A stretch of 64,000 bases of DNA from an uncultured Gammaproteobacteria bacterium (GCA_902521725.1 CABYTF010000003.1:81709-145708), one strand, 5' to 3'; shown: positions 1-45,308, counted from the first letter of the stretch. Notes: generated by a model from the sequence alone, not told the origin. A program made the numbers and translations.

Positions 1-1249
1 GAATTAATGGCCCTATATCTTTAAACTTAAGCTTTAGATCTTCACATGATGACTTAACACAGGCACTTATTGACGGCTTGTCATTGAAATCTATAGTAAA
101 AAATTTAGTAACAATATCTTTCAGTATTTTTATAGTCTGAGTTTTTTCATACTTAGCAATTATATTAAAATCGTAATGAATCTCATCCTGATAAAAATAT
201 GTAATGCTACTAGCAATATTTTTAAGAGAAAATTCTCTCTCAATTCCGAGAAGTAATATATTTTTTAGATAATCATCATTTGATACTTTATTTGGAAGAT
301 TTTGTTCTTGTAAGTATGGAAGTATCTGCTCTGCCACATTATCAATGTCGTCATTTTTTATATAGTATTGATTTAACCAGTTCAATTTATCAATATCAAA
401 ACATGCCGCAGATTTGGTAACCCGACCTAAATCAAAAAGCTCCAATAGTTCCTTAATACTGAAAATTTCTTTATCACCATGCGACCAACCGGTTTTGACT
501 AAATAATTTATCAAAGCATCAACTCTGTAACCCTCCCTGAGAAAATGATTTATATCGACTGCCCCATGTCTTTTGGACAATCTCTTACCATCGGTCCCAT
601 GAATCATAGGAAGGTGACAAAAGATAGGAACATTTGCCTCAAATGATTTGAAAAGATTTACTTGTACAGGTAAGTTACTTAAGTGATCATCTCCTCTGAT
701 GAGATGCGTTATTTCCATATCAATGTCATCTACTACAGACGTAAGATTATAAGTAGGTACACCATTTGATCTAAGAATTACAACATCAAAAAAAACTTTT
801 GGATCAAATTTTATTTCTCCGTGAACAGAATCACTGATGCTAATTATATTTTCTCTCTGATTCCTAAATCTGATAACATATCCTTCTTTGTTAAGCCTAT
901 TATCATAGGCAAGAGCTAAATCAGTCTCTCTTGTCTTTTCATTTTTCTCCACTTTGTCATAGTAAGCTAAATCTTTGTTGAGAAGTTCCTCAACCTTATC
1001 AATGTAGTGACTGAATCTCTGTGATTGATAAGTAATTTCATCATCATGTTCCAGGCCAAGTTGTTTGAGTGCTGAGATGATTGAGTCTTTGAATTCATCT
1101 GTACTTCTGGAAGTGTCCGTATCATCTATTCTAAGGAAGAATTTTCCTTTATTTTTTCTTGCATACAACCAGCTATATAGAGCTGTTCTAACACCTCCTA
1201 TATGAAGCCATCCAGTGGGACTAGGTGCAAATCTTGTGTTTACTGTCAT
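1..1249 (-). CDS. gltX: glutamate--tRNA ligase (5' part of gene; continues beyond window start)
   Basis: Manual minus-strand translation from ATG at 1249: MTVNTRFAPSPTGWLHIGGVRTALYSWLYARKNKGKFFLRIDDTD... The class I aaRS HIGH motif and a KMSK-like motif (LSKR) are present. The ORF stays open to the window edge. Its ATG overlaps the pmbA stop (ATGA). Confidence 0.8.
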   Translation of the reverse strand, partial: MTVNTRFAPSPTGWLHIGGVRTALYSWLYARKNKGKFFLRIDDTDTSRSTDEFKDSIISALKQLGLEHDDEITYQSQRFSHYIDKVEELLNKDLAYYDKVEKNEKTRETDLALAYDNRLNKEGYVIRFRNQRENIISISDSVHGEIKFDPKVFFDVVILRSNGVPTYNLTSVVDDIDMEITHLIRGDDHLSNLPVQVNLFKSFEANVPIFCHLPMIHGTDGKRLSKRHGAVDINHFLREGYRVDALINYLVKTGWSHGDKEIFSIKELLELFDLGRVTKSAACFDIDKLNWLNQYYIKNDDIDNVAEQILPYLQEQNLPNKVSNDDYLKNILLLGIEREFSLKNIASSITYFYQDEIHYDFNIIAKYEKTQTIKILKDIVTKFFTIDFNDKPSISACVKSSCEDLKLKFKDIGPLI

Positions 1250-2574
1250 AAGGTCATCTTAAAATTATCTACTACTGCTCCAGGCAATCTAGCACTTGAT
1301 GTTGATCTTTCTTCATATGTTCCAGAATCAATCAATAATTCTCTGTTTGATGTGAGACCTATTAGGTTTTCACCAAGCATACTATATACACTGTCATCAA
1401 AACGCATAGTATTTATAGGGGCTGTAAGTTGACCATTCTCTACTACAAAACACCCGAACCTAGTTAACCCAGTCATCCTTGCATTATTTCGATCAGAAAA
1501 GTTTAGATACCAGAGATTACTTATATAGAGTCCATTATTGATTGTGCTTAAGATTGCATCATCATCGATAGCACCTGCTCTCATATCAATAGAATAGGGA
1601 TACTCAGAGATACTTGATGCATTATGAGCCACCGAGTATTCAAGAGATGACCGTGGAGAAGTTAGAGATTCAGTAAACTCTCCGTCTTTGATCATATTTA
1701 TTACGTCTGGCTTTATAAAGCCATCAGAACTGAAGTTAGCAGAAATCCCACCTTTAATGTTTTCATCAATTGATACTGAAGCATGGAGTGTTTTTTCGCC
1801 TTTACTCAATAAATGCAATGGGCTTGTCCCAATTTTGTTTGCTTTATAGCTAAATCCTCCCCAAGACATCATGTCAATTATTTCATTTAATGCTGACGGT
1901 TCTAAATATACCGTGTATTCACCTTTTGGTATGGTCCTAGGTGATTGGGATAATATTTTGAGTTTTTTGATTCCTTGGTCAAGGTTAGTTTCAAATTCCT
2001 CATTATTCCATTTTTTGGAAGAATAATTTAACTTTATTGCATTATTATTTTCATTATATATCGAATAATCAAAACTGAAAGAGTAATCACTATGCCAATT
2101 AAACTGACCTAATGAATTGGCTAGCCCTGTGTAAATATAGCCTGACGAATATATTCCTACTAGATCTAAGCTCGCAATCTTTGGGAGTATATAATCTAAA
2201 TTCTCTTCATCATTAATGTACTTTTTATCATCAGAAACCTCAGTCGATTGAACAGATTTTGAGAATAACAAGTAAGGGTCTTTTGGTAGGTCAGGAAGTT
2301 CTCTTCTCAAATAATTAAGTGTTTTTATAAGAGTTGATAGATCTTTATCGAAACTACCGTTTAATCGAACATAGGATTTCAAATTTCTCTTATCACGATT
2401 CGAAAGGCTAAGAGACATTGATATTTGCTTAACATTGCCAGGTTGTCTAATTTTTGCTTTATTCAATCTAACAAAATTTGAGACCTCAGCATCAAAATTG
2501 AGTATTAAAAATTCGTCTTTTTGAATATGCTTAAATAATTTCTGAGCTATATTTTCAAAATAATCTCTCATCAC
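1246..2574 (-). CDS. pmbA: PmbA/TldE-family metalloprotease partner
   Basis: 442 aa with TldD/PmbA-family length and composition. It lacks the HExxxH motif and directly follows tldD with a 4-bp overlap. Confidence 0.7.
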   Translation of the reverse strand: MMRDYFENIAQKLFKHIQKDEFLILNFDAEVSNFVRLNKAKIRQPGNVKQISMSLSLSNRDKRNLKSYVRLNGSFDKDLSTLIKTLNYLRRELPDLPKDPYLLFSKSVQSTEVSDDKKYINDEENLDYILPKIASLDLVGIYSSGYIYTGLANSLGQFNWHSDYSFSFDYSIYNENNNAIKLNYSSKKWNNEEFETNLDQGIKKLKILSQSPRTIPKGEYTVYLEPSALNEIIDMMSWGGFSYKANKIGTSPLHLLSKGEKTLHASVSIDENIKGGISANFSSDGFIKPDVINMIKDGEFTESLTSPRSSLEYSVAHNASSISEYPYSIDMRAGAIDDDAILSTINNGLYISNLWYLNFSDRNNARMTGLTRFGCFVVENGQLTAPINTMRFDDSVYSMLGENLIGLTSNRELLIDSGTYEERSTSSARLPGAVVDNFKMTL

Positions 2575-4004
2575 TCCCCACCAAAAATATCAATTTCTCT
2601 GAATAAACATGGTGGTGTAGCATGACCGACGAAAATAGTTTGATTCGGCTCTCCCTTTCCACAATTTGCTGTGCCTAGAATAGAAAAAGATGTTTCATCC
2701 CCTACCATAGATAGGTTATGCCAAAATTCTTTTGTAATTCCTCGATAGTTTGGATTTTTTGTTACAGATTTTAGTTCACCATTTTTAATAACTGTTCCTT
2801 TCTCGCAACCAAATTGGAATTTATTTCTGTAATCATCAATTGACCAAGAATTATTCGTTTCAAGTAAAATGCCATCTTCCACAGAAGCTATCATTTCAGA
2901 AAATGATGACTCTCCTGGCTCAAGATTTATATTTCCCATCCTATCAATTGGAGGTCTATTCCAACTTGTTGCACGAGAGCATGCCACATAATCTTGATTA
3001 ACTCTTTGAGAAGAATAAAAGCCTCCGATTGGTCTCTCCAGTATTCCGTCTTTGATAAGATATTTTTTAGTCGCAGCAGTTCCATCATCGTCATAATTAT
3101 ATGTCGCTAGCTCAGATTCTTGGTTTGGATTGAATGAAATATTTAATTTATCAGATCCATATTTATACTCTCCAAACATATCTAAGTTCACAAAACTAGA
3201 TCCGGCATAGTTTCTCTCATCGCCCAGTATTCTATCTAGCTCAAGTGGGTGTCCAATTGATTCATGTATTTGAAGAATCATTTGATCGGGGGCGATTAAT
3301 GCATCCATTTTAGAGTCAGGGCAATTAGGTGCCATTGATAACTCTATGGCATCATTCGCGATTTGCTCTGCTTTTGTAATTAGATCTGAGTCTCTCAGAA
3401 AATTGTAACCAATCTGTCTAGCATGGGCATGACCACCGAATGTTCGCGTTTGTATTTGTTTCTTATACTCAGCACATGCAACCAGCTGCGGCAGAATATA
3501 TGATATGTTTTGTCTGATATCGCTGCCGTTCGTATCAGTAAAAAGTGTTTCAATCTTATTATATCTGAAGCTAGCCCCCCAATTAGAAATTGTAGGTTTT
3601 GATTTGAGGGATTTATTAATCTGCATGAGGTAATCAACTTTATCTTTGTTAGACTCCTTCGCCCAGCTATCCTTTTCGTGTGTAAAGTATTTACCATCGT
3701 CTGTTCTCATAGAGGGAGGGTGTGGCACATGTACTAATTTTCCTGATGAATACTCTGCCCACTTTTTTGCTTCCTCGATAGCTTTTAGAATTCCCTCGCG
3801 TGTGAGATCACTACTTGCACCATATCCGTAACCTCCATTATGAATTATGGTTACCATTACCCCCTCATCTTCTAAAATTTCTATAGGCTCAAGAACATTT
3901 CTTGTGACAGAGACAATATTTGTGTATTTGTTCACAAATCTAAACGAACAATAGTCAACACTGGGAAAATAAGCACTTATCTGTTTGAGAAATTCGTTTT
4001 TCAT
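2571..4004 (-). CDS. tldD: TldD metalloprotease
   Basis: 477 aa. Contains the HESIGHPLELD zinc-binding motif (HExxxH) typical of TldD and has the expected family length. Confidence 0.8.
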   Translation of the reverse strand: MKNEFLKQISAYFPSVDYCSFRFVNKYTNIVSVTRNVLEPIEILEDEGVMVTIIHNGGYGYGASSDLTREGILKAIEEAKKWAEYSSGKLVHVPHPPSMRTDDGKYFTHEKDSWAKESNKDKVDYLMQINKSLKSKPTISNWGASFRYNKIETLFTDTNGSDIRQNISYILPQLVACAEYKKQIQTRTFGGHAHARQIGYNFLRDSDLITKAEQIANDAIELSMAPNCPDSKMDALIAPDQMILQIHESIGHPLELDRILGDERNYAGSSFVNLDMFGEYKYGSDKLNISFNPNQESELATYNYDDDGTAATKKYLIKDGILERPIGGFYSSQRVNQDYVACSRATSWNRPPIDRMGNINLEPGESSFSEMIASVEDGILLETNNSWSIDDYRNKFQFGCEKGTVIKNGELKSVTKNPNYRGITKEFWHNLSMVGDETSFSILGTANCGKGEPNQTIFVGHATPPCLFREIDIFGGE

Positions 4005-4022
4005 GATTTAACAAGAAATACA

Positions 4023-4997
4023 TTGTATCATTTAAGTGTAATTATGCATAAAATTTATCCACTCATAGAAAGCACTGACTTTCCACATATAGAGAGAGAT
4101 GACCTTAATATATTACAGGTTAATCTTGGTTATAAATGTAATCAGAGATGTCTCCACTGTCACGTTAATGCTGGTCCTAATAGGAAAGAAATGATGGATC
4201 TGAAAACTATCAATGAAGTGATAAAATTTTCAGTAGATAATAATATCAAAATAATCGATTTAACAGGTGGTGCACCAGAAATAAATAAGCACTTCAAATA
4301 TATTGTCCAGACTTGTAAAGAAAATAATATCCATATCATCGATAGGTGCAATCTAACAATCCTTGAAAGTGAGGGCATGAGAGATCTACCAAAATTTTTA
4401 GCAAAACATAAAATTGAGATAATTGCTTCACTACCTTGTTATATTGAAGAAAATGTAAATTCCCAACGTGGAGAAGGTGTTTTCAAGCAAAGCATCGAAG
4501 CGTTGAAAAAACTTAATTCACTTGGATATGGAAAGGATGAGGAATTAATATTGAATTTAGTCTATAACCCACAAGGCCCTGAATTACCACCAGAGCAAAG
4601 TAAACTGCAAGTCGACTATAAAAATTTTCTTGGTGAAAAATATAAGATATTTTTTAATAAACTTTATACAATTACAAATATGCCAATTAGTAGATTTGGA
4701 AGTACATTAGTCAGTAAAAAAATATTCCATGACTACATGAGTCTACTCAAGAATTCTTTTTCTAGCTTAGCATTGAAACAAGTAATGTGCAGAGGGCTCA
4801 TCAGCATAGATTATAATGGCTATGTTTATGATTGTGACTTCAATCAGATGCTTGATATGCCTCTGTCTGGTAAAAGAACCCATATATCAGAAGTTAATAT
4901 GAAAAGCCTCAAAGGAAAAAAGATTGCGACAGCTGACCACTGTTATGGTTGTACTGCTGGAACAGGAAGTAGTTGCTCTGGATCTTTAGTTCAATAG
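4023..4997 (+). CDS. radical SAM/Cys-rich domain protein (ArsS-like, rSAM-selenodomain family, Cys form)
   Basis: N-terminal CNQRCLHCHV (CxxxCxxC) radical SAM cluster motif preceded by LQVNLG. C-terminal Cys-rich tail HCYGCTAGTGSSCSGS. Followed by the GT2 and DUF2064 genes that habitually accompany this family. Confidence 0.7.
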   Translation: MYHLSVIMHKIYPLIESTDFPHIERDDLNILQVNLGYKCNQRCLHCHVNAGPNRKEMMDLKTINEVIKFSVDNNIKIIDLTGGAPEINKHFKYIVQTCKENNIHIIDRCNLTILESEGMRDLPKFLAKHKIEIIASLPCYIEENVNSQRGEGVFKQSIEALKKLNSLGYGKDEELILNLVYNPQGPELPPEQSKLQVDYKNFLGEKYKIFFNKLYTITNMPISRFGSTLVSKKIFHDYMSLLKNSFSSLALKQVMCRGLISIDYNGYVYDCDFNQMLDMPLSGKRTHISEVNMKSLKGKKIATADHCYGCTAGTGSSCSGSLVQ

Positions 4998-5669
4998 ATG
5001 AAATTTTCTATTATTATACCCACTTTAAATGAAGAACAAGCACTCAACACTAGCCAGAAGAGTTTAATCGCTTTAAAAAACAAATTAAATGCTGAAATCA
5101 TTATTGTTGATGGAAAAAGCGATGATAACACAACGCCTTTAGCGAAATTAGTTGCTGATAAGTTTTATGATCAATCACCCTCCAGATCAGGCCAGCTGAA
5201 TAAAGGTGCAAGTCATGCTAGTGGCGATTACCTAATATTTCTACATGTTGATACATACATAAATCTGAGAGGATTAGAGGAAATACTGAGTATTGATGAT
5301 GACTTCAATTGGGGATTTTTTAAAATAAGGCTGGATGATTCTCAATTAAAGTATAAATTTCTTTCTTATTGTATAAACCTCAGAAGCAAGATATTTTCTT
5401 ACTCTACTGGAGATCAAGTACTAATTATTAAAAAAGATTTATTTGATGACATCAAGGGTTATCTTGATATTAATTTGATGGAAGACGTAGAAATCACATA
5501 CAGATTAAAAAAAATATGCAAACCAATTTTATTCGAGGGAAATGCTATTAGCTCTCCAAGAAGATGGAAGAAGAATGGTTTTTTTAAAACTATTCTTCAG
5601 ATGAGGATTTTGAGAATGCTCTACCATTTAGGTGTTTGTACAAATAAATTAAATAAATTGTATAAATGA
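4998..5669 (+). CDS. family 2 glycosyltransferase (rSAM/selenodomain-associated transferase 2-like)
   Basis: N-terminal FSIIIPTLNEE GT-A fold start with DGKSDD and DxD-like motifs. Start codon abuts the rSAM stop. Confidence 0.7.
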   Translation: MKFSIIIPTLNEEQALNTSQKSLIALKNKLNAEIIIVDGKSDDNTTPLAKLVADKFYDQSPSRSGQLNKGASHASGDYLIFLHVDTYINLRGLEEILSIDDDFNWGFFKIRLDDSQLKYKFLSYCINLRSKIFSYSTGDQVLIIKKDLFDDIKGYLDINLMEDVEITYRLKKICKPILFEGNAISSPRRWKKNGFFKTILQMRILRMLYHLGVCTNKLNKLYK

Positions 5670-6250
5670 AATCAATTGTCCATATCTTATCAAAGAATCC
5701 TGATTTATGTGAATGCAAAACACGGTTGAGAGATTTTTTGTCTAACAAAGAACGAGTTTATTTGTCAAAAACTATGTTGACGATGTTATGTTCCGAAATG
5801 AATGAAATTGATGTATTTAAGCTATTGCATTTTTATCCGAGTAATCAAGGAAAGTTCTCAAAAAAGTTATCACAAAGATTTAATATTAACACTACAAGAC
5901 AAATATCAGGCTACTTAAGTGATAAAATATTTTCGGCATTAGATAATACCGACGAATCATACCAAAAAAGAATATTAATAGGGTCTGATGTACCCTCGCT
6001 CTCAAAGCATGATATTAAAGATAGTATTTATTACCTAGATACGTGTGACGTCGTTATAGGACCCTCTAATGATGGTGGATTCTATCTTGTAGGTACGAAA
6101 AATAATTCACACTATATTTTTAAAAATTTAAAGCTTAACAAAATTTCAAAACAGGATATTTTTAGTCTTTGCTCTAGAGAAAAGTTAAGTTTCAAAACAT
6201 TAAGAGTATTGAAAGATATTGATGTTCCTAAGGATCTGCTACTTTTGTAA
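5666..6250 (+). CDS. DUF2064 protein (rSAM/selenodomain-associated transferase 1-like, nucleotidyltransferase fold)
   Basis: Shows KTRL, GSDVPSL (GxDxP) and GPSNDGGFYLVG (DGGY-type) motifs characteristic of DUF2064. 4-bp overlap with the upstream GT2. Confidence 0.65.
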   Translation: MKSIVHILSKNPDLCECKTRLRDFLSNKERVYLSKTMLTMLCSEMNEIDVFKLLHFYPSNQGKFSKKLSQRFNINTTRQISGYLSDKIFSALDNTDESYQKRILIGSDVPSLSKHDIKDSIYYLDTCDVVIGPSNDGGFYLVGTKNNSHYIFKNLKLNKISKQDIFSLCSREKLSFKTLRVLKDIDVPKDLLLL

Positions 6251-6251
6251 C

Positions 6252-6998
6252 TTACTTTTTGTGAAGATCATTTAGTTTTGTATATTTAAGATAGGTATTG
6301 AACATTGTAGTCACTGCGACTTTAAATCCGTTTTTTCCCTGCAAAATACCTCCTTTGATAAAGAGTTTTTTAAAAAATGCAAATAATGCTCTTGTGATGG
6401 GGCGAACATCTGATGGCATCACACCATCTTTATAAAGCTGTCTAGCGCTCATTGAACTTCTGAAGTTCATTTTATCCACCCATTCTGCCATCGACTCATA
6501 TGTTGTATGGACAATATGGCAATTAGTTTTTAGGGTATTATTACTAATTACGGCAGCGTGGTCTGCTCTTGAATCATAGTTAACTCTGCTTTTGTCATAG
6601 AGTCGTGTCACATAATCTGGATAGAAGCCCGCTGCTTTTATCCATTCATCACCGCAATAATTCTTCCTTCTAAATGCAAAGCTATCATAGCTGGTATTAG
6701 ACAAGTCTGTCTTTTTGATAAAATCAATCAAATCCTGGTCAAGGTACTCGTCCGCGTCTAAACTAAAAATCCAGCTATTGGATGCAAAATTAGAAGCCTC
6801 TTTTTTTTGAAGTCCATCGCCAAGAAATTCCTGAGTATAGACTTTTACTCCAGCAGATTTTGCTATATCTCTAGTTGAATCAGTGCTTTTTGAGTCAAGA
6901 ACGATTATTTCATCAGAAATATTTTTTAAACTTTCAATAGCACGAAGGATATATTTCTCAGCATTCAACGTGATAATTGTGCCTGTTATTTTATTCAT
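6252..6998 (-). CDS. family 2 glycosyltransferase (LPS core-type)
   Basis: N-terminal IITLNAEKYILRAIESL...DSKSTDST GT2 signature. Lies in the heptose/LPS-core neighbourhood. Confidence 0.65.
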   Translation of the reverse strand: MNKITGTIITLNAEKYILRAIESLKNISDEIIVLDSKSTDSTRDIAKSAGVKVYTQEFLGDGLQKKEASNFASNSWIFSLDADEYLDQDLIDFIKKTDLSNTSYDSFAFRRKNYCGDEWIKAAGFYPDYVTRLYDKSRVNYDSRADHAAVISNNTLKTNCHIVHTTYESMAEWVDKMNFRSSMSARQLYKDGVMPSDVRPITRALFAFFKKLFIKGGILQGKNGFKVAVTTMFNTYLKYTKLNDLHKK

Positions 6999-8086
6999 TT
7001 TTCGCTACCCATTATCAATTCCTCGAATTTAACAAAGTGTTTATCATAATCATATCGCTCATTCGCAAACTGAGAAGCTTTATTTACTAACTGTTTAGTT
7101 GATTCTTTTTTTTCTATTATAAAATCAATTCTTTTTTGAAGATCTGTATAGTTTTTTGATTCAAAGAGTAATCCATTTTCTTGATGATTTATAATCTCAG
7201 GTACTCCGCCAGCATTGCTACCTATTACAGGAACTTCCATCATCATAGCCTCTGCAACAATTAAACCAAATGTCTCTTCGTAGGTAGGAAGTATTATCAA
7301 ATCGAAACAAGGCATGTATGACATGGGGGAATCTACAAAATCAATAAAATGAACATGATGATGTATATTAAGACGTAATGCATCGTCTTGAAGTCTCTGT
7401 TTATATGAATTATCCATGGAGTATCCAATAATACATAACTGTATTTCATGCTCACTCTGAGAAATCGCATTCAACACAAGATGTTGCCCCTTTTGCTCTT
7501 CAATTCTTGAGAATACACCAATCAAAAATATAGAATTATCTAGATCGTTATCGGAATAGAATTTTTCCTTATCTACTAATGAATCTTTTGATGGTATATT
7601 TATTCCATACTCCAACACATGAATTTTAGATTTGTCAATTGGTAAATAATCACATGCTTCATAATATAGTTTTTTGGTTATAACTAGAAAAACATCAATA
7701 TTACTATATACAAATTTATGGTAAAGATCTCTTTTTGGGCGAGATATCTTCATCTGCCGATAAAATACAATTTTAAGATATTTTTTTGAAAATACTTTTA
7801 AAAGAATTGCCAGAAATAGATCTTTAGACCAGCTTACATGAATTATATCTATATCTTTATCGACTATGTATTTTCTTAGCTTAAGGAAATTTAAAATATT
7901 ATTGATAAAGCCTCTAGGGTTACACTCTAACTTATTCTCAATAATATTTTTAGTAATATATGAGTTTCTTGTGCAAGCGACAAATAAATTATCATTGTTA
8001 TAATATCTAGCAAATTTCAGAAAATATAGCTCTAGTCCACCCTGATCTGGAGACATACATAGAGCTAGCATCTTATTCATAATCAT
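6995..8086 (-). CDS. family 4 (GT-B) glycosyltransferase
   Basis: C-terminal EETFGLIVAEAMMMEVPVIGSNAGGVPEII matches the GT1/GT4 EX7E-type region. Confidence 0.7.
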   Translation of the reverse strand: MIMNKMLALCMSPDQGGLELYFLKFARYYNNDNLFVACTRNSYITKNIIENKLECNPRGFINNILNFLKLRKYIVDKDIDIIHVSWSKDLFLAILLKVFSKKYLKIVFYRQMKISRPKRDLYHKFVYSNIDVFLVITKKLYYEACDYLPIDKSKIHVLEYGINIPSKDSLVDKEKFYSDNDLDNSIFLIGVFSRIEEQKGQHLVLNAISQSEHEIQLCIIGYSMDNSYKQRLQDDALRLNIHHHVHFIDFVDSPMSYMPCFDLIILPTYEETFGLIVAEAMMMEVPVIGSNAGGVPEIINHQENGLLFESKNYTDLQKRIDFIIEKKESTKQLVNKASQFANERYDYDKHFVKFEELIMGSEK

Positions 8087-8172
8087 ATTTTTCTAAATCA
8101 TTATAATCTTAATAAACTATTAAGGACAAAGAATAATTTGTAAGTAGTAGAATTTATTGGTGTAATAAAGAA

Positions 8173-9126
8173 ATGAGAAAACTCTTAGTTGTAAGAAATG
8201 ATAAGCTAGGTGATTTGATTTTGATCTTACCTGCCCTAAAGTTGATAAAATCCTCGTGTTCTAATATTCAAATTGATTGTTTAGTCGATAAGAAATACTC
8301 CGAAATAAGCTCAATAACGAAATATATTGATGCTACTATTTATGATGATACGAATTTAGTAGAAGTCATAAATAATAATAATTATGACTTTTCGATCTCT
8401 TTTTACTCTTCATTTGTTACTAGTTACAAATTATGGCTTTCAAATATCCCAAAAAGATATGCGCCTGCAACAAAACTTGCTCAGATTTTTCACAACAAAA
8501 AAATTAAACAAAATAGATCGCTGTCACTCAAATCTGAGTATGAGTATAATAATGCTCTTGCTAAATTTTTTCTCAAAGACAACTTCTATAAGATCCTACC
8601 AGCAGACAATTCTTATATATCATTAAATGAAAAAAGTATATCGAGTAAAAATAAGATACTGATTTTTATTCATCCATTTACTGGTGGATCCTCAAAAACT
8701 CTGTCTGGAGATGATTTTATTCAGCTTTGTTTTGAACTAGATAGGAATGTAAATTGTAAATTTATTTTGCATTGTGCTACTGACGATTACGTTAAATGCC
8801 AAAAACTAGCAGAAAAAGCAGAGGGACTAGATATAAGTACTATTGATCCTACAAATAACCTGATTGAAATGTACAAAAATATAAATAGTTGTGACTTGTT
8901 TATTGCAGGGTCTACAGGACCGTTACATGTTGCAGCATCATTGAATAAGAAGACTGTGGGTTTTTATCCATCGAAGCAGTCATCGACTTTAGTCAGATGG
9001 GATACGATAAATGATAGGAAAAATAAATTAACCTATAGTGATACTGGAAATGATAAGAATTTTATAAAAGTTGATCTTAAAAAGATAGCAAATGAAATCA
9101 GCAGGGATTTACTTAACCAATTGTAA
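8173..9126 (+). CDS. GT9 heptosyltransferase-family protein (WaaC/WaaQ-like)
   Basis: N-terminal RKLLVVRNDKLGDLILILPAL and C-terminal GSTGPLHVAASLNKKTVGFY are GT9 hallmarks. Confidence 0.55.
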   Translation: MRKLLVVRNDKLGDLILILPALKLIKSSCSNIQIDCLVDKKYSEISSITKYIDATIYDDTNLVEVINNNNYDFSISFYSSFVTSYKLWLSNIPKRYAPATKLAQIFHNKKIKQNRSLSLKSEYEYNNALAKFFLKDNFYKILPADNSYISLNEKSISSKNKILIFIHPFTGGSSKTLSGDDFIQLCFELDRNVNCKFILHCATDDYVKCQKLAEKAEGLDISTIDPTNNLIEMYKNINSCDLFIAGSTGPLHVAASLNKKTVGFYPSKQSSTLVRWDTINDRKNKLTYSDTGNDKNFIKVDLKKIANEISRDLLNQL

Positions 9127-10098
9127 AATTGAATTCTTTACGTTATCTACGGTTATATTGTTTAAACAATTCATGTGTCCTAGAGGACAAGTTTTTTTGA
9201 AACATGGACTACAGTTTAAACTCTCATAGTGGGTAATTTTTTTTTCGTCACTTAATAGTGGAGGTGTATAAATAGGTGATGATGATCCATAAATCCCAAC
9301 AACTGGTTTATCTAAAGCTGCTGCCACATGCATAAGACCAGAATCATTTGAAACAACACAACTCGATAACCTTATAATGTCTAAAGCATCAGTTATGGAA
9401 GTTTCGCCAATAAGATCTGATACATTGCTGCTTCCAAGTTCTTGGATATATTTGCTAATAGATTTATCTAATCCCACAAAAATCACTTGATGCTTATCGC
9501 TTATAGTTTTAGCTAAATCAATCCATTTATGGACAGGCCATTTCTTTGCTGGTCCAAATTCCGCATCAGGGCAAAAAACAACATAGTCTTTCTTGAGACT
9601 AAACTTATGATTCAGAGAGTTTTCGCTAACTGTCGACATGATTCTCGGCTTTAGTCTTGGTTGATATCTCTTATTAATGAGATTGAGATATCTATTTACC
9701 ATGCCCTCTTTACGATCTATTGTTTTTACTACTTTATTGATAAGTCCGTACCTAAACTCGCCAAGGTAGCCTATTCTCTTTTTTATTTTAGCAACAAAGG
9801 GAGTGATAGATGATTTAAAACTGTTGGAGAGAATGTAGCATTCTGAATATTTTTTTTCTCTAAGTTTTAATCCTAGCTTAATTCTATAAAAGAGTGATAA
9901 TTTACCATGCCGTGTCTTAGAGACAATAAGTTTAGAAACATTAGGTAGACATTGAGCAAGGTCATAAAGATTCTCATTAACTAATAAGTCTATTGTCACA
10001 TCTTTATTAATCTCTTTTAACGCATTCAATAATGTAAGGCTCATAACTAAGTCTCCAATCCATGCAGGCGCAACAATTAGAATCTTCGAGTTACTCAT
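9109..10098 (-). CDS. waaF: ADP-heptose:LPS heptosyltransferase II
   Basis: ILIVAPAWIGDLVMS, REKKYSECYILSNSFKSSITPF and RYGLINKVV align closely with E. coli WaaF. The C-terminal DSGLMHVAAAL...GIYGSSSP region also matches. Confidence 0.75.
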   Translation of the reverse strand: MSNSKILIVAPAWIGDLVMSLTLLNALKEINKDVTIDLLVNENLYDLAQCLPNVSKLIVSKTRHGKLSLFYRIKLGLKLREKKYSECYILSNSFKSSITPFVAKIKKRIGYLGEFRYGLINKVVKTIDRKEGMVNRYLNLINKRYQPRLKPRIMSTVSENSLNHKFSLKKDYVVFCPDAEFGPAKKWPVHKWIDLAKTISDKHQVIFVGLDKSISKYIQELGSSNVSDLIGETSITDALDIIRLSSCVVSNDSGLMHVAAALDKPVVGIYGSSSPIYTPPLLSDEKKITHYESLNCSPCFKKTCPLGHMNCLNNITVDNVKNSILQLVK

Positions 10099-11040
10099 TT
10101 ATGTTTTATCTAGAAAAGATAGGTATTCATTTACCCCATCCTCTAATTCAGTAGGCTTACCTGGGTATCCAGCATTATTAAGATTAGTCATATCTGCTTG
10201 TGTATAAGCTTGGTATTGTCTCTCAAGCCCCTCGGGAAAATCGATATAATCAATATATCCTGAATTAAAGTAATTTATAACAGCATTGCCTACGTCATTA
10301 AATGATCTGCTCTTACCCGTTGCGACGTTAAAAATGCCTGACAGGTTATTATTCATAAACCAAATCTTAATCTTCACAGTATCTTTTACATAAACAAAGT
10401 CTCTTCTTTGTTCCCCATCATCATAACCATGGCTCCCACGAAATAATTTTAACATCCCATGTTTTTTGAATTGATTGTAAAAATGATAGATTACACTACT
10501 CATAACTTCCTTGTGTCGCTCATATGGACCATAAACATTAAAATACCTTATTCCAACCACTTGAGATTTAATTTTTGAAAAATTCTCACGCACGAAGTTA
10601 TCAAATAATAACTTAGATTCAGAGTAGTGATTCAGTGAGGATTCATTTTCTGGCTCTTCTTTAAAGACATTGCCGCTTCCATAAACAGATGCAGATGATG
10701 CATACACCATATTTATATTATTATTGGCAGAATGTTCCAATAGGTCTTTCGAATACTCAAGGTTGGTAAACATAACATAGTCTCTATCCTGCTCAGTAGT
10801 TTTTGAGCAAGCGCCCAAATGAAAAATATATTCAATTTTATTCTTATATTTTCCATTCTTTAAGTCTTTTAAAAAATGATTATTATCCACGCAGTCTTCA
10901 ATATCGAGATCTTTTATATTTTCAAACTTTTTGGTGTACTTATCTAACTCTTCAACTACTAAAACTTTTTTATCAGATTCAAGTAATGATCTAACGAGAT
11001 TTGTCCCAATGAAGCCTGCTCCGCCAGTAACTACAATCAT
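10099..11040 (-). CDS. hldD: ADP-L-glycero-D-manno-heptose 6-epimerase
   Basis: MIVVTGGAGFIGTNLV NAD-binding N-terminus, like E. coli HldD (MIIVTGGAGFIGSN). The tracked ORF extends 10 codons further upstream, to 11070. Confidence 0.8.
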   Translation of the reverse strand: MIVVTGGAGFIGTNLVRSLLESDKKVLVVEELDKYTKKFENIKDLDIEDCVDNNHFLKDLKNGKYKNKIEYIFHLGACSKTTEQDRDYVMFTNLEYSKDLLEHSANNNINMVYASSASVYGSGNVFKEEPENESSLNHYSESKLLFDNFVRENFSKIKSQVVGIRYFNVYGPYERHKEVMSSVIYHFYNQFKKHGMLKLFRGSHGYDDGEQRRDFVYVKDTVKIKIWFMNNNLSGIFNVATGKSRSFNDVGNAVINYFNSGYIDYIDFPEGLERQYQAYTQADMTNLNNAGYPGKPTELEDGVNEYLSFLDKT

Positions 11041-11137
11041 AGTTTGAATGATACATGATTTTTTATTCAATTATAATAATACTCAATAAAAGTATTGTTA
11101 TGCTGTCAATTTAGCTGGTACAATTACTTTTTTTGAA

Positions 11138-19529: not shown

Positions 19530-20300
19530 ATGCTGTACCTACCGCATATAATTGGAATTATTTATCTCGCAATGTCTGTATGCCTGTTTAACTTATATAT
19601 GGGCAGAGACTGTAAGATCCCTTTGAGCATTTCTTATTTAAGAATTATTGGTTTATTTCTATTAGGATTGTTTGTTTTCAAGGTTGCATATCCATTTAAC
19701 GTTTTTAGCTTTGTAAGCTCATTATTTATAATATTATTCATAATAAATTTATTCTTTATGGTGCTTAATTTTTATCGACCTGTTGATTATATCGGTCTCA
19801 TACTTAATCCTGTAATATTTCTTGCGTTACTTACCTATATAATAGTTGACTTACCTCAGGCAGGGTCAATTGTTGAGAAAAATTTATACATACATATTAT
19901 ATTCTCATTGTCTTCATATGGTTTTCTCTTTCTTGCAGGTATCCAGGCTTTGATTTTGAAATATCAAATAACAAGTATTAAAAACATCCATCACTCAACA
20001 CTTCTGAATTCATTCCCTTCTATTGAGGAAATGGGTAAAATTATGCATAGATTAATTCTATCCGGGTTCATTTTACTTACACTCTCGCTTCTCTCTGGAA
20101 TACCATACATGACCAATGCTATTGGAACCGATAACAGTCAGAAGATAGTATTTTCAATAATTGCTTGGATTGCTTACCTATACCTATTGTTCAAAAAATC
20201 GAACTATGGAATTAATGATACAACTGCGGCAAACATGACTATTGGTGGCTTGGTGTTTCTAATATTTGCATACTTAGGAACAAAACTCTTTATTGGATAA
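19530..20300 (+). CDS. CcsA-like cytochrome c assembly family inner-membrane protein (YpjD-like)
   Basis: Polytopic membrane protein in the position E. coli ypjD occupies next to the rpsP operon and the corC-like gene. No WWD motif, so it is not CcmC. Confidence 0.5.
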   Translation: MLYLPHIIGIIYLAMSVCLFNLYMGRDCKIPLSISYLRIIGLFLLGLFVFKVAYPFNVFSFVSSLFIILFIINLFFMVLNFYRPVDYIGLILNPVIFLALLTYIIVDLPQAGSIVEKNLYIHIIFSLSSYGFLFLAGIQALILKYQITSIKNIHHSTLLNSFPSIEEMGKIMHRLILSGFILLTLSLLSGIPYMTNAIGTDNSQKIVFSIIAWIAYLYLLFKKSNYGINDTTAANMTIGGLVFLIFAYLGTKLFIG

Positions 20301-29633: not shown

Positions 29634-30052
29634 TTATCATTCTCCAAAAATATTATATCTGATTCTTCCCTATAACCGACAACCCAGAGACCCCTTATTT
29701 TTGCATATTCTCTAGCTTTGACTCTAGATTTATCTGAAATATTTCTGTGTATTATGAGGCTTTGGCCAGGTAAAATCAAATCTGCATCGTATATCTTATT
29801 TTGGTTGTTTTTGAAAATATTTGGCCAGACAAAAGGATCATCATAATATTTGTAAGATATATCCCATAATGTGTCTCCATAAACAACTGTGTGGTATTGA
29901 GTTGGCTCATTATCATCTACGATGCTAGAGAACTTTGTTGTGCCTTCGATATCTATGGTTTGAGATGTACATGATGATAGGGTAATTACTATAAAAAACA
30001 AAATTGATGCAAATGTGTTCTTTTTAAAGTTCATAAAAGGTATCCTATGCAT
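29630..30052 (-). CDS. LysM domain lipoprotein
   Basis: Lipobox LSSCTS. LysM motif YHTVVYGDTLWDISYKYY. Confidence 0.55.
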   Translation of the reverse strand: MHRIPFMNFKKNTFASILFFIVITLSSCTSQTIDIEGTTKFSSIVDDNEPTQYHTVVYGDTLWDISYKYYDDPFVWPNIFKNNQNKIYDADLILPGQSLIIHRNISDKSRVKAREYAKIRGLWVVGYREESDIIFLENDK

Positions 30053-30616
30053 ATGAATGATATCTTAATACTATATTACTCAAAAAATGATTCAACAAAA
30101 AAAATGGCTCGTGCTATAGCGCGTGGAATCGAATCATCAAATCTGGCAAGTTCATCTATAAGAACAGTTCACTCTGACAGTTACAAAGAAAGTGATGACA
30201 TACTTGTAACTAAAGAAGATCTTAAAAAATGCTCAGGAATGATAATTGGCAGTCCCACTCATTTCGGAAATATGGCTGCTCCTCTGAAAGCTTTTTTTGA
30301 TAGTACAACAGATGAATGGTTTAATAATACCCTAGAGAGTAAATTAGGTGGTGTATTCACTTCTACCTCAAGTATGCACGGCGGCCAGGAGACTACACTA
30401 ATAAGCATGATGATGCCTTTAATTCATCATGGCATGATCATAGCTGGGGTGCCATATAGTGAGAAAAATCTATCATCGACAATCTCAGGTGGAACACCTT
30501 ATGGTCCTAGTCACGTTTCTCACAATCAAAAAGTAGATTTGACTGAAGAAGAAAAACTAATTTGTTTATCATACGGCAAAAGATTTGCTGAGTTAGTGGG
30601 TAAGTTAAATTCTTAA
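30053..30616 (+). CDS. wrbA: NAD(P)H:quinone oxidoreductase, WrbA type
   Basis: ILILYYS...GSPTHFGNMAAPLKAFFD...GGTPYGPS aligns with E. coli WrbA. Confidence 0.75.
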   Translation: MNDILILYYSKNDSTKKMARAIARGIESSNLASSSIRTVHSDSYKESDDILVTKEDLKKCSGMIIGSPTHFGNMAAPLKAFFDSTTDEWFNNTLESKLGGVFTSTSSMHGGQETTLISMMMPLIHHGMIIAGVPYSEKNLSSTISGGTPYGPSHVSHNQKVDLTEEEKLICLSYGKRFAELVGKLNS

Positions 30617-33729: not shown

Positions 33730-34926
33730 TTATTTCTGCCTTGTTTTTAATCTTAAAGAGTTAATCTTTATAAAGCCCTCAGCATCTCTTTGGTCATATG
33801 CTCCAGAGTCGTTTTCGAAAGTAGATAAGTCCTCGGAATACAACGAATTTGGCGATTTTCTACCTTCAACAATAACATTGCCTTTGAACAGTTTCAGTCT
33901 TACATTCCCTGATACCTTTGCTTGTGATTGGTCTATTAAATTTTGTATTGACTCTCTCTCGGGACTAAACCAGTAGCCATTATAAATCAGTCTAGAATAT
34001 CTATTTGTTAAATCCTCTTTTAAATGAAGCAGCTCTCTATCAAGAGTGATTGATTCCATTGCTTTGTGTGCTTTATAGTAGATTGTTCCACCAGGTGTTT
34101 CATAACAACCTCTTGATTTAATTCCGACATATCTGTTCTCTACTATATCATCCCTACCAATGCCATGATTGCCTGCCATGATATTCAAATGATGAAGTAC
34201 ATTCGAAGGACTCATTTTCTTGCCATTGATGGCAGAAATATCACCCTTGGTGAAGGTAAGATCTAAACGCTGTGGTTTTGATTTGCTATTTTCAAGCGAT
34301 TTAGTTCTTAGCCACATAGATTCTTCTGGTTTCCTCCATGGATCTTCAAGTATCCCTCCCTCATATGATGTATGTAAAATGTTTGCATCCATTGAGTAAG
34401 GGCTTTTTTTTCCATGATCAAAGTCAACTGCGATTTGATGTTTTCTAGCATATCTCATCAAATCAGACCGAGAAACGAAGTCCCATTCTCTCCATGGCGC
34501 TATTACTTTTATTTTTGGATTTAATGCATAGGCGGCTAGTTCAAACCTAACTTGATCATTGCCCTTACCTGTTGCACCATGACATATGTAATCAGCTTTT
34601 TCTTTTTTTGCTATTTCTATAAGCCGTTTGCTGATTAATGGTCTTGCAATTGACGTTCCTAAAAAATATTCTCCTTCATAAATCGCATTTGCTCTAAACA
34701 TTGGGTACACGTAATTTTTAACAAAATCTTCACGCAAATCCTCAATATAAATTTTTTTGATACCTAATTTTTTTGCTTTAACCCTAGCATCTCTTGTTTC
34801 CTCTCCCTGCCCAATGTCTGCGGTAAAGGTGACTACTTCAAGGTCATACTCTTCCATAAGCCATTTCGCAATGACGGAAGTATCTAAGCCACCAGAGTAA
34901 GCTAGAACAACCTTCTTAGGCCTCAT
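33730..34926 (-). CDS. argG: argininosuccinate synthase
   Basis: [13 protein letters not shown]...[13 protein letters not shown] ArgG signatures. Confidence 0.9.
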
Positions 34927-35374
34927 TCATATCCTCTGATATTTCTGCTTGAGGTTCAACCCACCTAAAACCTTTATCAGTAGATTCCTTTTTCCAAAAA
35001 GGAGCTTCACTTTTTAGTGCTTCCATGATTTCTCTAGTAGCATCGAATGCATCTTCTCTGTGTTCAGACCATGTTGCAACTAAAACAATTGGATCTGATG
35101 GACTAACAAGACCGACTCTATGTAAAATTATAGTATCAATAATTTTATATTTTTTAATGGCGTTCTCCGAAATCTTCTCAAGGTAGGACTCAGTCATCTC
35201 AGGGTAGTGCTGTAATTCCATAGACTTTATCTCATCACCAGAATTAATATCTCTCATAGTCCCTAAAAAAACACTGCACGCGCCTATATTTTTTCTATCT
35301 TTCAGCTGAGACTTTTTATAGTCAACAAGCTTCTGCCACGGATCAAACTCTTCATTTATAATTTCAATATACAT
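34916..35374 (-). CDS. moaE: molybdopterin synthase catalytic subunit
   Basis: 151 aa. MoaE-like with GxxxVFxGxxR-type core ([11 protein letters not shown]). Confidence 0.7.
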
Positions 35375-35376
35375 AT

Positions 35377-35610
35377 TTAGCCACCTGTCACTGGGGGAAA
35401 GAAAGCAACTTCATCCTCATCTCTAAGTAAATAGTTTTCATCTACATACTCATGATTCACTGCCGTCATAACCTTACCAGCATATTTTATATTTTTTGAA
35501 ACATCTGTCCAAACTTCCCCAACAGTCATTTCATGCTGGAGTACTATTTTTTCAGAAGTCTTTCCTACTGCATCACTGATACTTGCAAAGTATTTTACTA
35601 CAATTATCAT
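35377..35610 (-). CDS. moaD: molybdopterin synthase sulfur-carrier subunit
   Basis: C-terminal ...FPPVTGG Gly-Gly. The likely start is MIIVVKYFA, so the tracked ORF is 7 codons longer. Confidence 0.65.
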   Translation of the reverse strand: MIIVVKYFASISDAVGKTSEKIVLQHEMTVGEVWTDVSKNIKYAGKVMTAVNHEYVDENYLLRDEDEVAFFPPVTGG

Positions 35611-35667
35611 TATTATGAATGAATGATACATATATGTTTGAGTAAGTTCAAATATAATGTATGAGGG

Positions 35668-35925
35668 TTACGCTCGAGTCCTTACTTTATTACTGAAAAC
35701 GACTCCTAATAAGATCGATAGATAACATACAATCAAATAGATCCAGTTGCCATCATTCAATGCTGGATAGATCGGGATTAGCGGAAAAAACATTGCCGTT
35801 CCTATAAAGCCTACAAGGATGTGGAACACACCATAATCTGGAAACATTTGAGCTAATATCTCAAAACCAGCGGCCAAAGCTGAGAGTATCGCAATTGAAT
35901 AGAAAATATATGACAAAACTCTCAC
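35668..35925 (-). CDS. small hydrophobic membrane protein, unknown function
   Basis: 85 aa with 2–3 predicted TM helices. Wedged between moaA and moaD. Confidence 0.35.
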   Translation of the reverse strand: MRVLSYIFYSIAILSALAAGFEILAQMFPDYGVFHILVGFIGTAMFFPLIPIYPALNDGNWIYLIVCYLSILLGVVFSNKVRTRA

Positions 35926-35926
35926 A

Positions 35927-36949
35927 TTATCCTCCGATGTAAGACATTTCGACCTTAGGTAGATCTCTTTTTGATGAAAATCTTATCTGAGAGTACTGAT
36001 CTGAGCGTTCCATCCAGATTTTTTTGAAGAACTCTAAAAGTTTTTCCTCATAATCACCAGATCTTATTACGCTTTTGATATCAAATCCATTGCTTGCGAA
36101 TAAGCAGGTGAATAGTTTACCATCAACAGAAAGTCTTGCTCTGTTACAGCTTGAGCAAAAGGGTTGGGTAATGGAAGATATTAATCCAATTGAAGAATTA
36201 CTACCTTTAATATGCCATTTTTTTGCGGTTGAGGAAGTCTCCGTTTTCATTTGCTTAAGACTATAATGCTGATTTATACTCTCAAGTAGACTCTCAGATG
36301 AGACAACTTTGCTTGGGTCCCATTTATTTGACTCACCAACATCCATATACTCTATGAATCTGATCTCAGATTTAAAATTTTTCATATGATTGATAATATC
36401 TATTACCTCATCATCATTGACACCCTTTATAACAACAGTATTTGTTTTTATAATATTAAAGTGCTTTTCGATACTCTCTAAAATAGGCATTAAGCTGAAA
36501 TTTTTTTTTGTACCATTAATAACAGAAATTTTATCTTTATCCAATGTATCTAAGCTTAAGGTAATTGAGTCCAGACCTGATTTTTTGAGTTCACTTACTT
36601 TATCATCTGATAACAAAGAGCCATTTGTTGTCATGCTAACATGATCAAGCATGACGTCTGTTTTGAGCTTAAAGATAAGTTTATCAATATTTTTTCTCAA
36701 AAGAGGTTCACCTCCTGTGATACGAACTTTCATCAAACCTATTTTTTTTAGGAGTTTGCAGATATCAATTATCTCCTCATATGACAAAATATTGTCCTGA
36801 GATATATAACTATAGTCTTTATTAAATATATCGGAGGGCATACAATAGCTGCACCTAAAATTACATCGATCAGTTACAGATATTCTTAAATATTCGAAAT
36901 TTCTTGATAGTTTGTCTGTTACAGTGTTAGTCACAAAATTTGCACTCAT
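35927..36949 (-). CDS. moaA: GTP 3',8-cyclase
   Basis: LRISVTDRCNFRCSYCMP radical SAM motif of MoaA. The C-terminal Cys cluster is present. Confidence 0.85.
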   Translation of the reverse strand: MSANFVTNTVTDKLSRNFEYLRISVTDRCNFRCSYCMPSDIFNKDYSYISQDNILSYEEIIDICKLLKKIGLMKVRITGGEPLLRKNIDKLIFKLKTDVMLDHVSMTTNGSLLSDDKVSELKKSGLDSITLSLDTLDKDKISVINGTKKNFSLMPILESIEKHFNIIKTNTVVIKGVNDDEVIDIINHMKNFKSEIRFIEYMDVGESNKWDPSKVVSSESLLESINQHYSLKQMKTETSSTAKKWHIKGSNSSIGLISSITQPFCSSCNRARLSVDGKLFTCLFASNGFDIKSVIRSGDYEEKLLEFFKKIWMERSDQYSQIRFSSKRDLPKVEMSYIGG

Positions 36950-37694
36950 GATCTTTGTTTATGGTTATAGTCTTAAACTCATAATTTTTCATATCGATCA
37001 ACATTAGTTTACTGCCGAAGTTATCACCTATGTCACAAATTAACTTGATGCATTCTGTTGCTAGCATAGTACCTACAAGCCCAGTGACACTTCCAAGTAT
37101 TCCTGAATCGAGACATGATGGAGAAGTGTCTGGCAAATCGTTATATAGGCATCTGTAACATGGCATGTCATCAAGGTCATTTCTAAAAGTAGCAATCTGA
37201 CCCTGCATTTTTATTGCCGCTCCACTTATTAGCGGTATCTTATTCGCTATTGAGATATTATTAATTTCACTCCTGGTTTGAAAGTTATCTGTACAGTCTA
37301 TAATGTAGTCATAATCTTTGAGCAGATCTTTATCAAATTTATTATCAATTTTTCTTGGAATTGACTTAATATCTATCTCTGAATTCAATGATTGAAGATT
37401 TTTTTTTGCTGCCTCAGCTTTTTTTTCAGATATATCATCTTCAGAGAATAAGACTTGACGATTTAAATTAGATAAAGACACATGATCAAAATCAATTAAA
37501 CACAAATGGCCTACTCCTGATGATGCTAGATATGTAGCTGCGGGGCATCCAATTCCTCCCAAACCAATTACTGCTACTTTTGATTTAAGAAGAGATAATT
37601 GACCGTCTATGTCTATCTCTGGTAAAACAATATTTCTGTTATATCTCAGAAGATCTTTGTCTTGAAGTTCAGCCTTTGTTTTTTTGGCTTGCAT
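36927..37694 (-). CDS. moeB: molybdopterin-synthase adenylyltransferase (ThiF/MoeB family)
   Basis: RYNRNIVLPEIDIDGQ...VIGLGGIGCPAA nucleotide-binding motif. C-terminal CxxC (HECKFCD). The likely start is MQAKK rather than the longer tracked ORF. Confidence 0.7.
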   Translation of the reverse strand: MQAKKTKAELQDKDLLRYNRNIVLPEIDIDGQLSLLKSKVAVIGLGGIGCPAATYLASSGVGHLCLIDFDHVSLSNLNRQVLFSEDDISEKKAEAAKKNLQSLNSEIDIKSIPRKIDNKFDKDLLKDYDYIIDCTDNFQTRSEINNISIANKIPLISGAAIKMQGQIATFRNDLDDMPCYRCLYNDLPDTSPSCLDSGILGSVTGLVGTMLATECIKLICDIGDNFGSKLMLIDMKNYEFKTITINKDHECKFCD

Positions 37695-37962
37695 TGAATT
37701 TTTCCAGCTGTTCTTTAGTAGCTTCTTTTTGATGTTTATTTTTGTACTCATCATATGGCATACCATAAACTAACTCTCTAGCTTGATCGTATGATATTTC
37801 CTCTCCATGAGTTGTTGATTCTGAGACATACCATTTAGAGATACAGTTTCTACAAAAATTAGCTAAGTTCATCAGATCAATATTCTGCACTTCGGGGTTA
37901 TCTTGTAAGTGCCTTACTATCCGTCTAAATGTAGCTGCTTCAATTTCTGTTTTTTTATCCAT
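37669..37962 (-). CDS. DUF1244-like small protein
   Basis: FRRIVRHL...NIDLMNLANFCRNCISKWY pattern, as I recall for DUF1244. 97 aa. Confidence 0.45.
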   Translation of the reverse strand: MDKKTEIEAATFRRIVRHLQDNPEVQNIDLMNLANFCRNCISKWYVSESTTHGEEISYDQARELVYGMPYDEYKNKHQKEATKEQLEKFNASQKNKG

Positions 37963-38001
37963 GGTTTAATGATACTACAGATCAATCTCTGGTGAAATAA
38001 A

Positions 38002-38883: not shown

Positions 38884-38903
38884 GTTAATATCATTGAAAG
38901 CAT

Positions 38904-43944: not shown

Positions 43945-43945
43945 T

Positions 43946-45306: not shown

Positions 45307-45308
45307 GA

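Follow-up and report, generated by a model that had tools for sequence, protein, structure and literature searches.

The window analysed here, a 64,000-nt stretch of an uncultured gammaproteobacterial genome (GCA_902521725.1, CABYTF010000003.1:81709-145708), carries close to its left end a tightly packed gene trio which, taken as a whole, is probably best explained as an ArsS/TIGR04283/TIGR04282 cassette in a minimal form without ArsM, i.e. as a cassette of the kind labelled 'arsenosugar biosynthesis' by NCBI. The trio comprises a radical S-adenosylmethionine (radical SAM, rSAM) gene of the ArsS family (4044–4997, plus strand, 317 aa), a gene for a glycosyltransferase of the GT2 fold assigned to TIGR04283 (4998–5669, plus strand, 223 aa) and a gene for a DUF2064/CofC-like putative nucleotidyltransferase that is TIGR04282-like (5666–6250, plus strand, 194 aa). 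Beside it, and divergent from it, lie genes for a TldD-like metallopeptidase and its PmbA-like partner, for which an initial annotation of the same DNA had proposed a functional link with the rSAM protein. We are confident that the locus is an ArsS-type cassette and that it is unrelated to TldD/PmbA; more guardedly, and judging from sequence, we lean towards arsenic being the real substrate in this organism, an abundant, streamlined, marine, low-GC gammaproteobacterium with a GC content of ~32%. Its low GC content, streamlining and marine sources suggest that it may be SAR86-like; no paper linking SAR86 with arsM was found. The cassette type is already known and annotated. Specific to this locus are the minimal ArsM-less form, the presence or absence of the cassette at strain level, and its position at the edge of a hypervariable lipopolysaccharide (LPS) block in a common marine lineage.

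The family identity of the three proteins was established with profile hidden Markov models (HMMs). The rSAM protein scores 447.5 bits against TIGR04167, the ArsS equivalog model (cutoff 300), covering model positions 2–303 of 303, and its Pfam matches are PF04055 (Radical_SAM, 45 bits) and PF12345 (DUF3641, 186 bits), the latter corresponding to the Cys-rich C-terminal domain. The initial description of the protein as a mere relative of ArsS is therefore outdated, since the protein passes the ArsS equivalog model well above its cutoff. When MoaA, QueE, PqqE-like proteins and the maturases of ribosomally synthesised and post-translationally modified peptides (RiPPs) were considered as alternatives, all of them stayed at or below 51 bits against cutoffs of 170–850, and so the protein is not a member of another characterised rSAM family, an outcome that would have overturned the original identification. 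The GT2 protein passes TIGR04283 (210.1 bits, cutoff 182) and matches PF00535. The DUF2064 protein falls below the TIGR04282 cutoff (115.7 bits, cutoff 134), yet TIGR04282 is its best match and is covered over positions 2–189 of 189; the protein passes the Pfam DUF2064 model (PF09837, 61.8 bits, threshold 25.8) as well as the Pfam CofC model (PF01983, 42.4 bits), and it scores 44.9 bits against TIGR03552 (CofC). The trio was thus correctly recognised from the start as the TIGR04167/TIGR04283/TIGR04282 neighbourhood, with the qualification that two of the three proteins exceed the curated cutoffs and the third, its best match notwithstanding, does not. NCBI already names a close homologue of the rSAM protein ArsS in a metagenome-assembled genome (MAG) of marine Gammaproteobacteria.

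The cysteines of the rSAM protein fit this assignment. The CX3CX2C motif reads CNQRCLHC, and C32, C36, C39, C249, C264, C300, C303 and C311 are invariant. The C-terminal tail (...HCYGCTAGTGSSCSGSLVQ) has no in-frame TGA and contains the motif Gly-Ser-Ser-Cys (GSSC). Some members of the family are known to carry a selenocysteine motif, GxxU (PMC13188914); the equivalence between this motif and the tail of our protein is taken from the published motif. At the GxxU-equivalent position Cys is found in 86 of 86 rSAM homologues, none of which has an in-frame TGA, in agreement with the original reading of the protein as the Cys form. An AlphaFold model (predicted TM-score, pTM, 0.77; predicted local distance difference test, pLDDT, 72; residues 298–317 of the tail at low confidence) has as its nearest solved folds in a Foldseek search SkfB, SuiB, BlsE and anSME (E 1e-9 to 1e-6, TM ~0.5), and a sequence search of the PDB with the rSAM protein returned generic radical SAM core matches only. 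From the model we infer that the C-terminal domain resembles the auxiliary-cluster domains of the twitch/SPASM type: like the four enzymes above, the protein appears to consist of a radical SAM core and, C-terminal to it, a Cys-rich domain. It is unlike them in that sequence identity is 14–18%, the corresponding HMMs are far below cutoff and no gene for a peptide substrate is present.

The three genes are functional and under purifying selection: the ratio of nonsynonymous to synonymous substitution rates (dN/dS) is 0.09–0.12 for the rSAM gene, 0.19–0.30 for the GT2 gene and ~0.08 for the DUF2064 gene (0.08–0.30 overall, compared with 0.05 for TldD), and gene lengths are constant throughout the lineage. 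All five open reading frames (ORFs) described initially for the region are present with the coordinates then given, and the junctions could be read directly from the sequence. The ATG of the GT2 gene follows the TAG of the rSAM gene with 0 bp between them, and the end of the GT2 gene and the start of the DUF2064 gene have ATGA in common, i.e. they overlap by 4 bp; both junctions had been given correctly. A single base pair separates the DUF2064 stop codon from that of the convergent gene GT2b. On the other side the rSAM gene most likely starts at ATG 4044 (317 aa) rather than at TTG 4023. The ATG is preferred because the relatives of the protein are mostly 316–317 aa long and because the conservation upstream of it is non-coding: the 21 nt 5' of position 4044 are kept even in strains that have no rSAM gene. 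With this start the divergent spacer to tldD (4005–4043) is 39 bp long, within the 18–40 bp initially quoted, the start at TTG 4023 being unlikely. With junctions of 0, -4, 1 and 39 bp there is nowhere that a precursor-peptide ORF could fit, in line with the earlier remark that none was evident. The region as a whole is densely packed, with a GC content of ~31–37%. Rfam and tRNA scans of the window gave no match, and no mobile-element signatures were seen at the edges of the cassette, which was judged from the 1-bp and 39-bp junctions only, with no dedicated repeat search.

We then asked how far this arrangement is shared with other genomes. A forward scan of species-representative genomes returned at least 600 rows, of which the best 80 loci (rSAM identity 51–60%) were used; L012, the sole locus among the 80 with TldD/PmbA beside the cassette, is fully syntenic with the window and was for this reason assigned to the same lineage, leaving 79 distant cassette loci, 45 of them with at least 5 kb on each flank. 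This sample is nearly all Pseudomonadota, cyanobacterial and deltaproteobacterial cassettes lying outside it. Within 10 kb of the rSAM gene, a GT2 gene is present in 39 of the 45 full-flank loci, and a DUF2064 gene is found near it in 35 of 45; in 20 of the 79 distant loci the GT2 gene stands directly downstream. The adjacency of the trio is thus far beyond chance expectation, and the trio is a conserved unit. Further genes are met less regularly near the rSAM gene of the full-flank loci: a fusion of DedA with a flavin adenine dinucleotide (FAD)-dependent, MerA-like disulfide reductase (27/45), a DUF547-like gene (12/45), a phosphoesterase-like gene (11/45), the TIGR03169 'N-terminal-to-SelD' oxidoreductase (11/45) and an ArsM-like methyltransferase (6/45, or 13 of the 79 distant loci overall). 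Other uncharacterised proteins also occur among these extras, and such extended cassettes hint at redox handling of a soft metalloid. A search of the window and of the flanks of syntenic contigs found none of the optional partners, and hence the window holds the minimal core of the cassette. Extended cassettes are common in beta- and gammaproteobacteria among loci L007–L086 (e.g. L011:7669-9882, L080:15715-16857 and L036:10872-11963). The window accordingly shares with the proteobacterial TIGR04167–TIGR04283–TIGR04282 neighbourhood the same three core genes in the same order and with the same tight coupling; it differs from other proteobacterial cassettes in lacking all of the additional partners and in having a divergent DUF2064 member below the family cutoff.

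A possible course of catalysis can be outlined from the ArsS reaction, in which a 5'-deoxyadenosyl radical adenosylates dimethylarsenite, DMAs(III), to yield 5'-deoxy-5'-dimethylarsinoyl-adenosine (DDMAA), the first committed step to arsenosugars (PMC13598754; PMC12159101). On the strength of equivalog-level homology to cyanobacterial ArsS, the rSAM protein of the window would reductively cleave SAM at the [4Fe-4S] cluster of the CX3CX2C motif, and the 5'-deoxyadenosyl radical would add to the As of dimethylarsenite to give DDMAA. The likely role of the invariant C-terminal cysteines is to bind an auxiliary cluster, and that of the flexible, Gly/Ser-rich tail with its GSSC motif is to present As(III), the thiophilic substrate. 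The GT2 protein and the CofC-like nucleotidyltransferase, in the roles putatively assigned to them, would then convert the arsenonucleoside to arsenosugar-type products. Since there is no arsM nearby, dimethylarsenic would have to be supplied by an arsM elsewhere in the genome or by the uptake of dimethylarsenate from seawater. The initial annotation regarded substrate and product of the module as unknown; for ArsS the reaction has since been defined, and it is for the GT2 and DUF2064 proteins, whose roles are unproven, that the statement still stands.

The TldD/PmbA neighbours belong to a separate history. The TldD-like gene (2571–4004, minus strand, 477 aa, HESIGH motif, matches to PF01523 and PF19289) and the PmbA-like gene (1246–2574, minus strand, 441–442 aa, without HExxxH, PF19289 at 73 bits) lie outside the cassette and are translationally coupled, as had been noted, the stop codon of tldD overlapping the start of pmbA (GTGATG). 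In E. coli the TldD/PmbA pair takes part in the maturation of microcin B17 and CcdA. The pair in the window resembles E. coli TldD/PmbA (TldD/TldE) in its Pfam domains, in having the HExxxH motif in one subunit and not in the other, and in the coupling of the two genes. Unlike the E. coli pair, it scores as another subfamily: the TldD-like protein reaches 61 bits against NF008006 (cutoff 513) and 121 bits against NF040952 (cutoff 635), and the PmbA-like protein has Pfam family-level domains only, matching no NCBIfam model, the canonical PmbA model included. Naming the genes tldD–pmbA is therefore warranted at the level of the Pfam family; by these scores they form a divergent TldD/PmbA-family subfamily and are no equivalogs of the E. 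coli genes. The TldD-like subfamily is ~50% identical across many phyla, where its members are named only 'TldD/PmbA family protein'.

In close relatives of the window, recovered from marine single-amplified genomes, MAGs and Tara samples, synteny is complete down to an rSAM identity of ~69%, with the order gltX–pmbA–tldD <> rSAM–GT2–DUF2064 <> GT2b–GT4–GT9–waaF–hldD–purEK. Because everything from gltX to purEK is equally syntenic, the adjacency of cassette and protease pair in these genomes is indistinguishable from general synteny. Outside the lineage the two part company. In the 79 distant cassette loci, neither tblastn nor two subfamily HMMs, a family-level HMM or jackhmmer found an adjacent TldD/PmbA-family gene. 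The family-level HMM, built on the shared C-terminal domain, was added because neither subfamily HMM picked up the other protein of the pair; it detects both of them as well as the single remote family member found among these loci, which in L080 lies 8.5 kb away from the rSAM gene. Conversely, of the best 80 loci (of at least 600 rows) from a reverse scan of metagenomes with the TldD-like protein, 64 are distant TldD/PmbA loci (45–52% identity); over the flanking sequence at hand, up to 8 kb, not one of the 64 carries the cassette. TldD is followed by a PmbA-like gene in almost all loci whose contig extends far enough downstream. Phylogenomically, then, the adjacency is confined to the window's own lineage.

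Within that lineage the cassette can be lost without its neighbours. In L090, L092 and L093 (TldD 82–85% identical), one sub-clade nested among trio-bearing strains, pmbA–tldD adjoins GT2b–GT4 and ~125 bp replaces the trio (L090:4560-4700, L092:7870-8004, L093:1800-1936). This intergenic DNA still has ~17 nt of homology to the start of the rSAM gene, together with the element TGnTACAAT, and the most parsimonious explanation is a single deletion of the trio that left the upstream element of tldD intact. The element (window 4022–4030, minus strand) is extended -10-like, lies within the 39-bp spacer, ends 17 nt before the tldD ATG and is invariant in an alignment of trio-bearing and trio-less strains; we take it to be a putative promoter of tldD. 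The shared promoter region suggested initially is not borne out, given that the tldD element is kept with or without the trio; generic promoter motifs in a consensus scan occur at chance level (27 vs 28.5 ± 5.8), a count that is uninformative here. In a related lineage, at L099:4455-5947 (TldD 67% identical), the rSAM gene is still divergent to tldD and neither GT2 nor DUF2064 is nearby; it is followed by an ORF for a 169-aa His-rich, secreted-looking protein and then by hisD, aroG, hisG and murA.

The spacer between tldD and the rSAM gene is also a recombination boundary, and the left edge of a hypervariable recombining block (4044–11070, per-gene identity profiles) that contains the trio and the LPS-core genes GT2b (6252–6998) and GT4 (6995–8086), both convergent to the trio, GT9 (8173–9126), waaF (9109–10098) and hldD (10099–11070). 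When the window is compared with L169/L170, protein identity is 90–92% for gltX, pmbA and tldD, 49–78% from rSAM to hldD and 86–95% for purE and purK. Compared with L091, identity is 80–84% for gltX, pmbA and tldD, 77–90% from rSAM to hldD and 87% for purE, here purE only. It is this reversal of the pattern between the two comparisons that places a boundary in the tldD|rSAM spacer, and the identity profiles place the other one at hldD|purE. The trio is thus a strain-variable accessory module in a ~7-kb hypervariable block, linked genetically to the variable LPS-core genes and not to the protease pair. The tldD–pmbA genes are an unrelated, strongly conserved housekeeping protease pair that flanks an insertion/deletion site by chance, and the position of the trio next to them is inherited gene order with no functional partnership. 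The functional rSAM–TldD/PmbA link proposed at the outset fails on the absence of co-occurrence in either direction (0/79 and 0/64), on the loss of the trio with retention of tldD–pmbA and on the recombination boundary.

Other explanations of the locus have to be weighed against the ArsS-type reading. Cooperation of the rSAM protein with TldD/PmbA on a modified peptide or small molecule, in the manner of a RiPP pathway and with a shared divergent promoter region, could draw on the divergent arrangement across just 39 bp, on an adjacency held lineage-wide down to ~63% TldD identity, on the rSAM gene that adjoins tldD in L099 though GT2 and DUF2064 are no longer adjacent, on the activities of the E. 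coli pair and on the RiPP maturases SkfB and SuiB among the nearest solved folds. The distribution of the two gene sets, the sub-clade that dropped the trio and kept tldD–pmbA with the upstream element, the intervening boundary and the lack of room for a precursor ORF all speak against it; moreover, RiPP-maturase HMMs give at most 50 bits against cutoffs of 300–850, and a TM of ~0.5 reflects generic twitch/SPASM architecture. A partnership of this kind is already largely refuted, and we regard it as extremely improbable. The trio might instead serve envelope glycoconjugate synthesis (decoration of the LPS core or a glycolipid), working as one unit with the neighbouring genes for GT2b, GT4 and heptosyltransferase. 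Two of the three trio proteins are indeed glycosyl- or nucleotidyltransferase-like, the trio co-varies and recombines with the LPS-core genes as one block, rSAM through hldD, and it meets GT2b at the 1-bp convergent junction. However, homologues of GT2b, GT4 and GT9 of the window are near none of the 79 distant cassettes, the LPS genes are intact in the trio-less sub-clade, and the trio is transcribed convergently to GT4–GT2b and so cannot share an operon with them. The co-variation needs no explanation beyond linkage within a hypervariable region. An envelope role is very unlikely, if less so than the peptide pathway.

The alternative closest to the arsenosugar reading keeps the chemistry, 5'-deoxyadenosylation followed by glycosyl and nucleotidyl tailoring, and replaces the substrate with a selenium, sulfur or other soft-metalloid species, in which case the name 'arsenosugar' would be an over-extension from cyanobacteria. 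Several observations that favour this alternative weigh at the same time against arsenic. A tblastn search for ArsM-like sequence gave zero matches at E<=0.01 in the 64-kb window and in the flanks of syntenic contigs, and neither arsM nor arsC, acr3/arsB, arsR or arsH was found in the same sequences. Only ~13–16% of proteobacterial cassettes have ArsM next to them, and the commonest extras are the DedA–FAD fusion and the TIGR03169 oxidoreductase, with GT2 and DUF2064 nearly always present; because ArsM is so seldom adjacent, the arsenic assignment of the proteobacterial module is one by homology only. In Synechocystis sp. PCC 6803, arsS is co-transcribed with arsM. The protein of the window matches Synechocystis ArsS in the TIGR04167 equivalog assignment, the CX3CX2C motif, the DUF3641 Cys-rich domain and the Cys-form GxxC tail; it differs in that its gene sits in a GT2–DUF2064 operon with no arsM in 64 kb, in a heterotrophic-type marine gammaproteobacterium where the system is known from genes alone. 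In addition, the roles of GT2 and DUF2064 are named by association only, the latter protein being below the curated cutoff, the structural model is of moderate quality only (pLDDT 72), and some members of the rSAM family are selenoproteins with GxxU. Against a non-arsenic substrate stand the equivalog-level score (447 vs a cutoff of 300), the ArsM-like gene beside 13 of the 79 distant cassettes, the lack of direct support for any alternative substrate and the intermixing of ArsM-linked and ArsM-less members in the family tree, where ArsM-adjacent rSAM proteins are scattered (13 leaves, 12 state changes). Identity to the rSAM protein of the window is the same for ArsM-adjacent and ArsM-less homologues. 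This scatter and equal identity give, as far as sequence can tell, no sign that the ArsM-less copies form a separate, non-arsenic functional subfamily. A substrate other than arsenic is, on balance, rather unlikely.

Several candidates for arsenic genes were considered and rejected. The methyltransferase at 42093–42965 is not ArsM-like, the flavin mononucleotide (FMN) reductase at 30047–30616, considered as ArsH, is WrbA, and of two class-I methyltransferases upstream of gltX in L003 neither is ArsM. These last two genes are divergent (L003:2119-4105) and replace the S6PP-like, 404-aa and alpha-amylase genes of L001, L002 and L169, so that the site upstream of gltX is a further strain-variable spot. 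No sel genes were found in the 64-kb window, the rest of which is core housekeeping.

Arsenosugars and arsenosugar phospholipids are major organoarsenic pools of the ocean and are usually credited to algae and cyanobacteria. According to a lipidomics preprint, some of the arsenosugar phospholipids of the surface ocean are of forms that point to bacteria as their source (bioRxiv 10.1101/2021.03.22.436501), which gives the cassette some ecological interest; the link between cassette and lipids is a candidate one. A selected ArsS-type cassette in a common heterotroph-like lineage (the near-identical protein cluster of the rSAM protein has 283 member sequences in marine metagenomes) would make this lineage a candidate bacterial producer. 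One may speculate further that the lineage scavenges dimethylarsenic from phytoplankton and uses the ArsM-less trio to build arsenosugar head-groups of membrane or envelope lipids. We consider this scenario unlikely as it stands; if true, the lineage would be a source of the 'bacterial-type' arsenosugar phospholipids in surface-ocean particles, and the cassette would persist within a cell-surface hypervariable region as a trait that varies between strains. Trio-bearing and trio-less strains offer a ready natural comparison, and a minimal form of just three genes makes a compact construct with which to assign functions to the TIGR04283 and TIGR04282 partners. For annotation, the lesson is that adjacency to TldD/PmbA is not to be taken as a biosynthetic link.

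Several other features of the window deserve mention. Positions 53591–58489 look like a small metal-homeostasis cluster, which includes a TonB-dependent receptor carrying a poly-Glu insert, an 81-aa ORF rich in His and Cys (55592–55837), a CopZ-like HMA protein whose N-terminus is His-rich (57439–57849), a membrane protein weakly resembling MerT (57846–58223) and a repressor of the CsoR/RicR family (58226–58489). A possible lipid head-group or glycolipid cluster occupies 41224–46019, with an LPG_synthase_TM protein, a weak class-I methyltransferase (not ArsM-like), a GT4 glycosyltransferase, a PTPS-like protein, a BchC/zinc-dehydrogenase-like protein and a CDP-alcohol phosphatidyltransferase. 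Molybdenum-cofactor genes at 34916–39563 encode MoaE, MoaA, a ThiF/MoeB-like and a MOSC-domain protein, with an EamA transporter between them; moaA (35927–36949) also encodes a radical SAM protein, a second one in the window, with no relation to the cassette. Finally, the genes for cytochrome c maturation are found in two separate places (51638–52223 and 19530–20300): at ~49.7–52.2 kb there are ccmF, ccmE and a 40-aa ccmD-like ORF with no ccmC beside them, and a CcmC-like Cytochrom_C_asm protein is encoded 30 kb from ccmF/ccmE.

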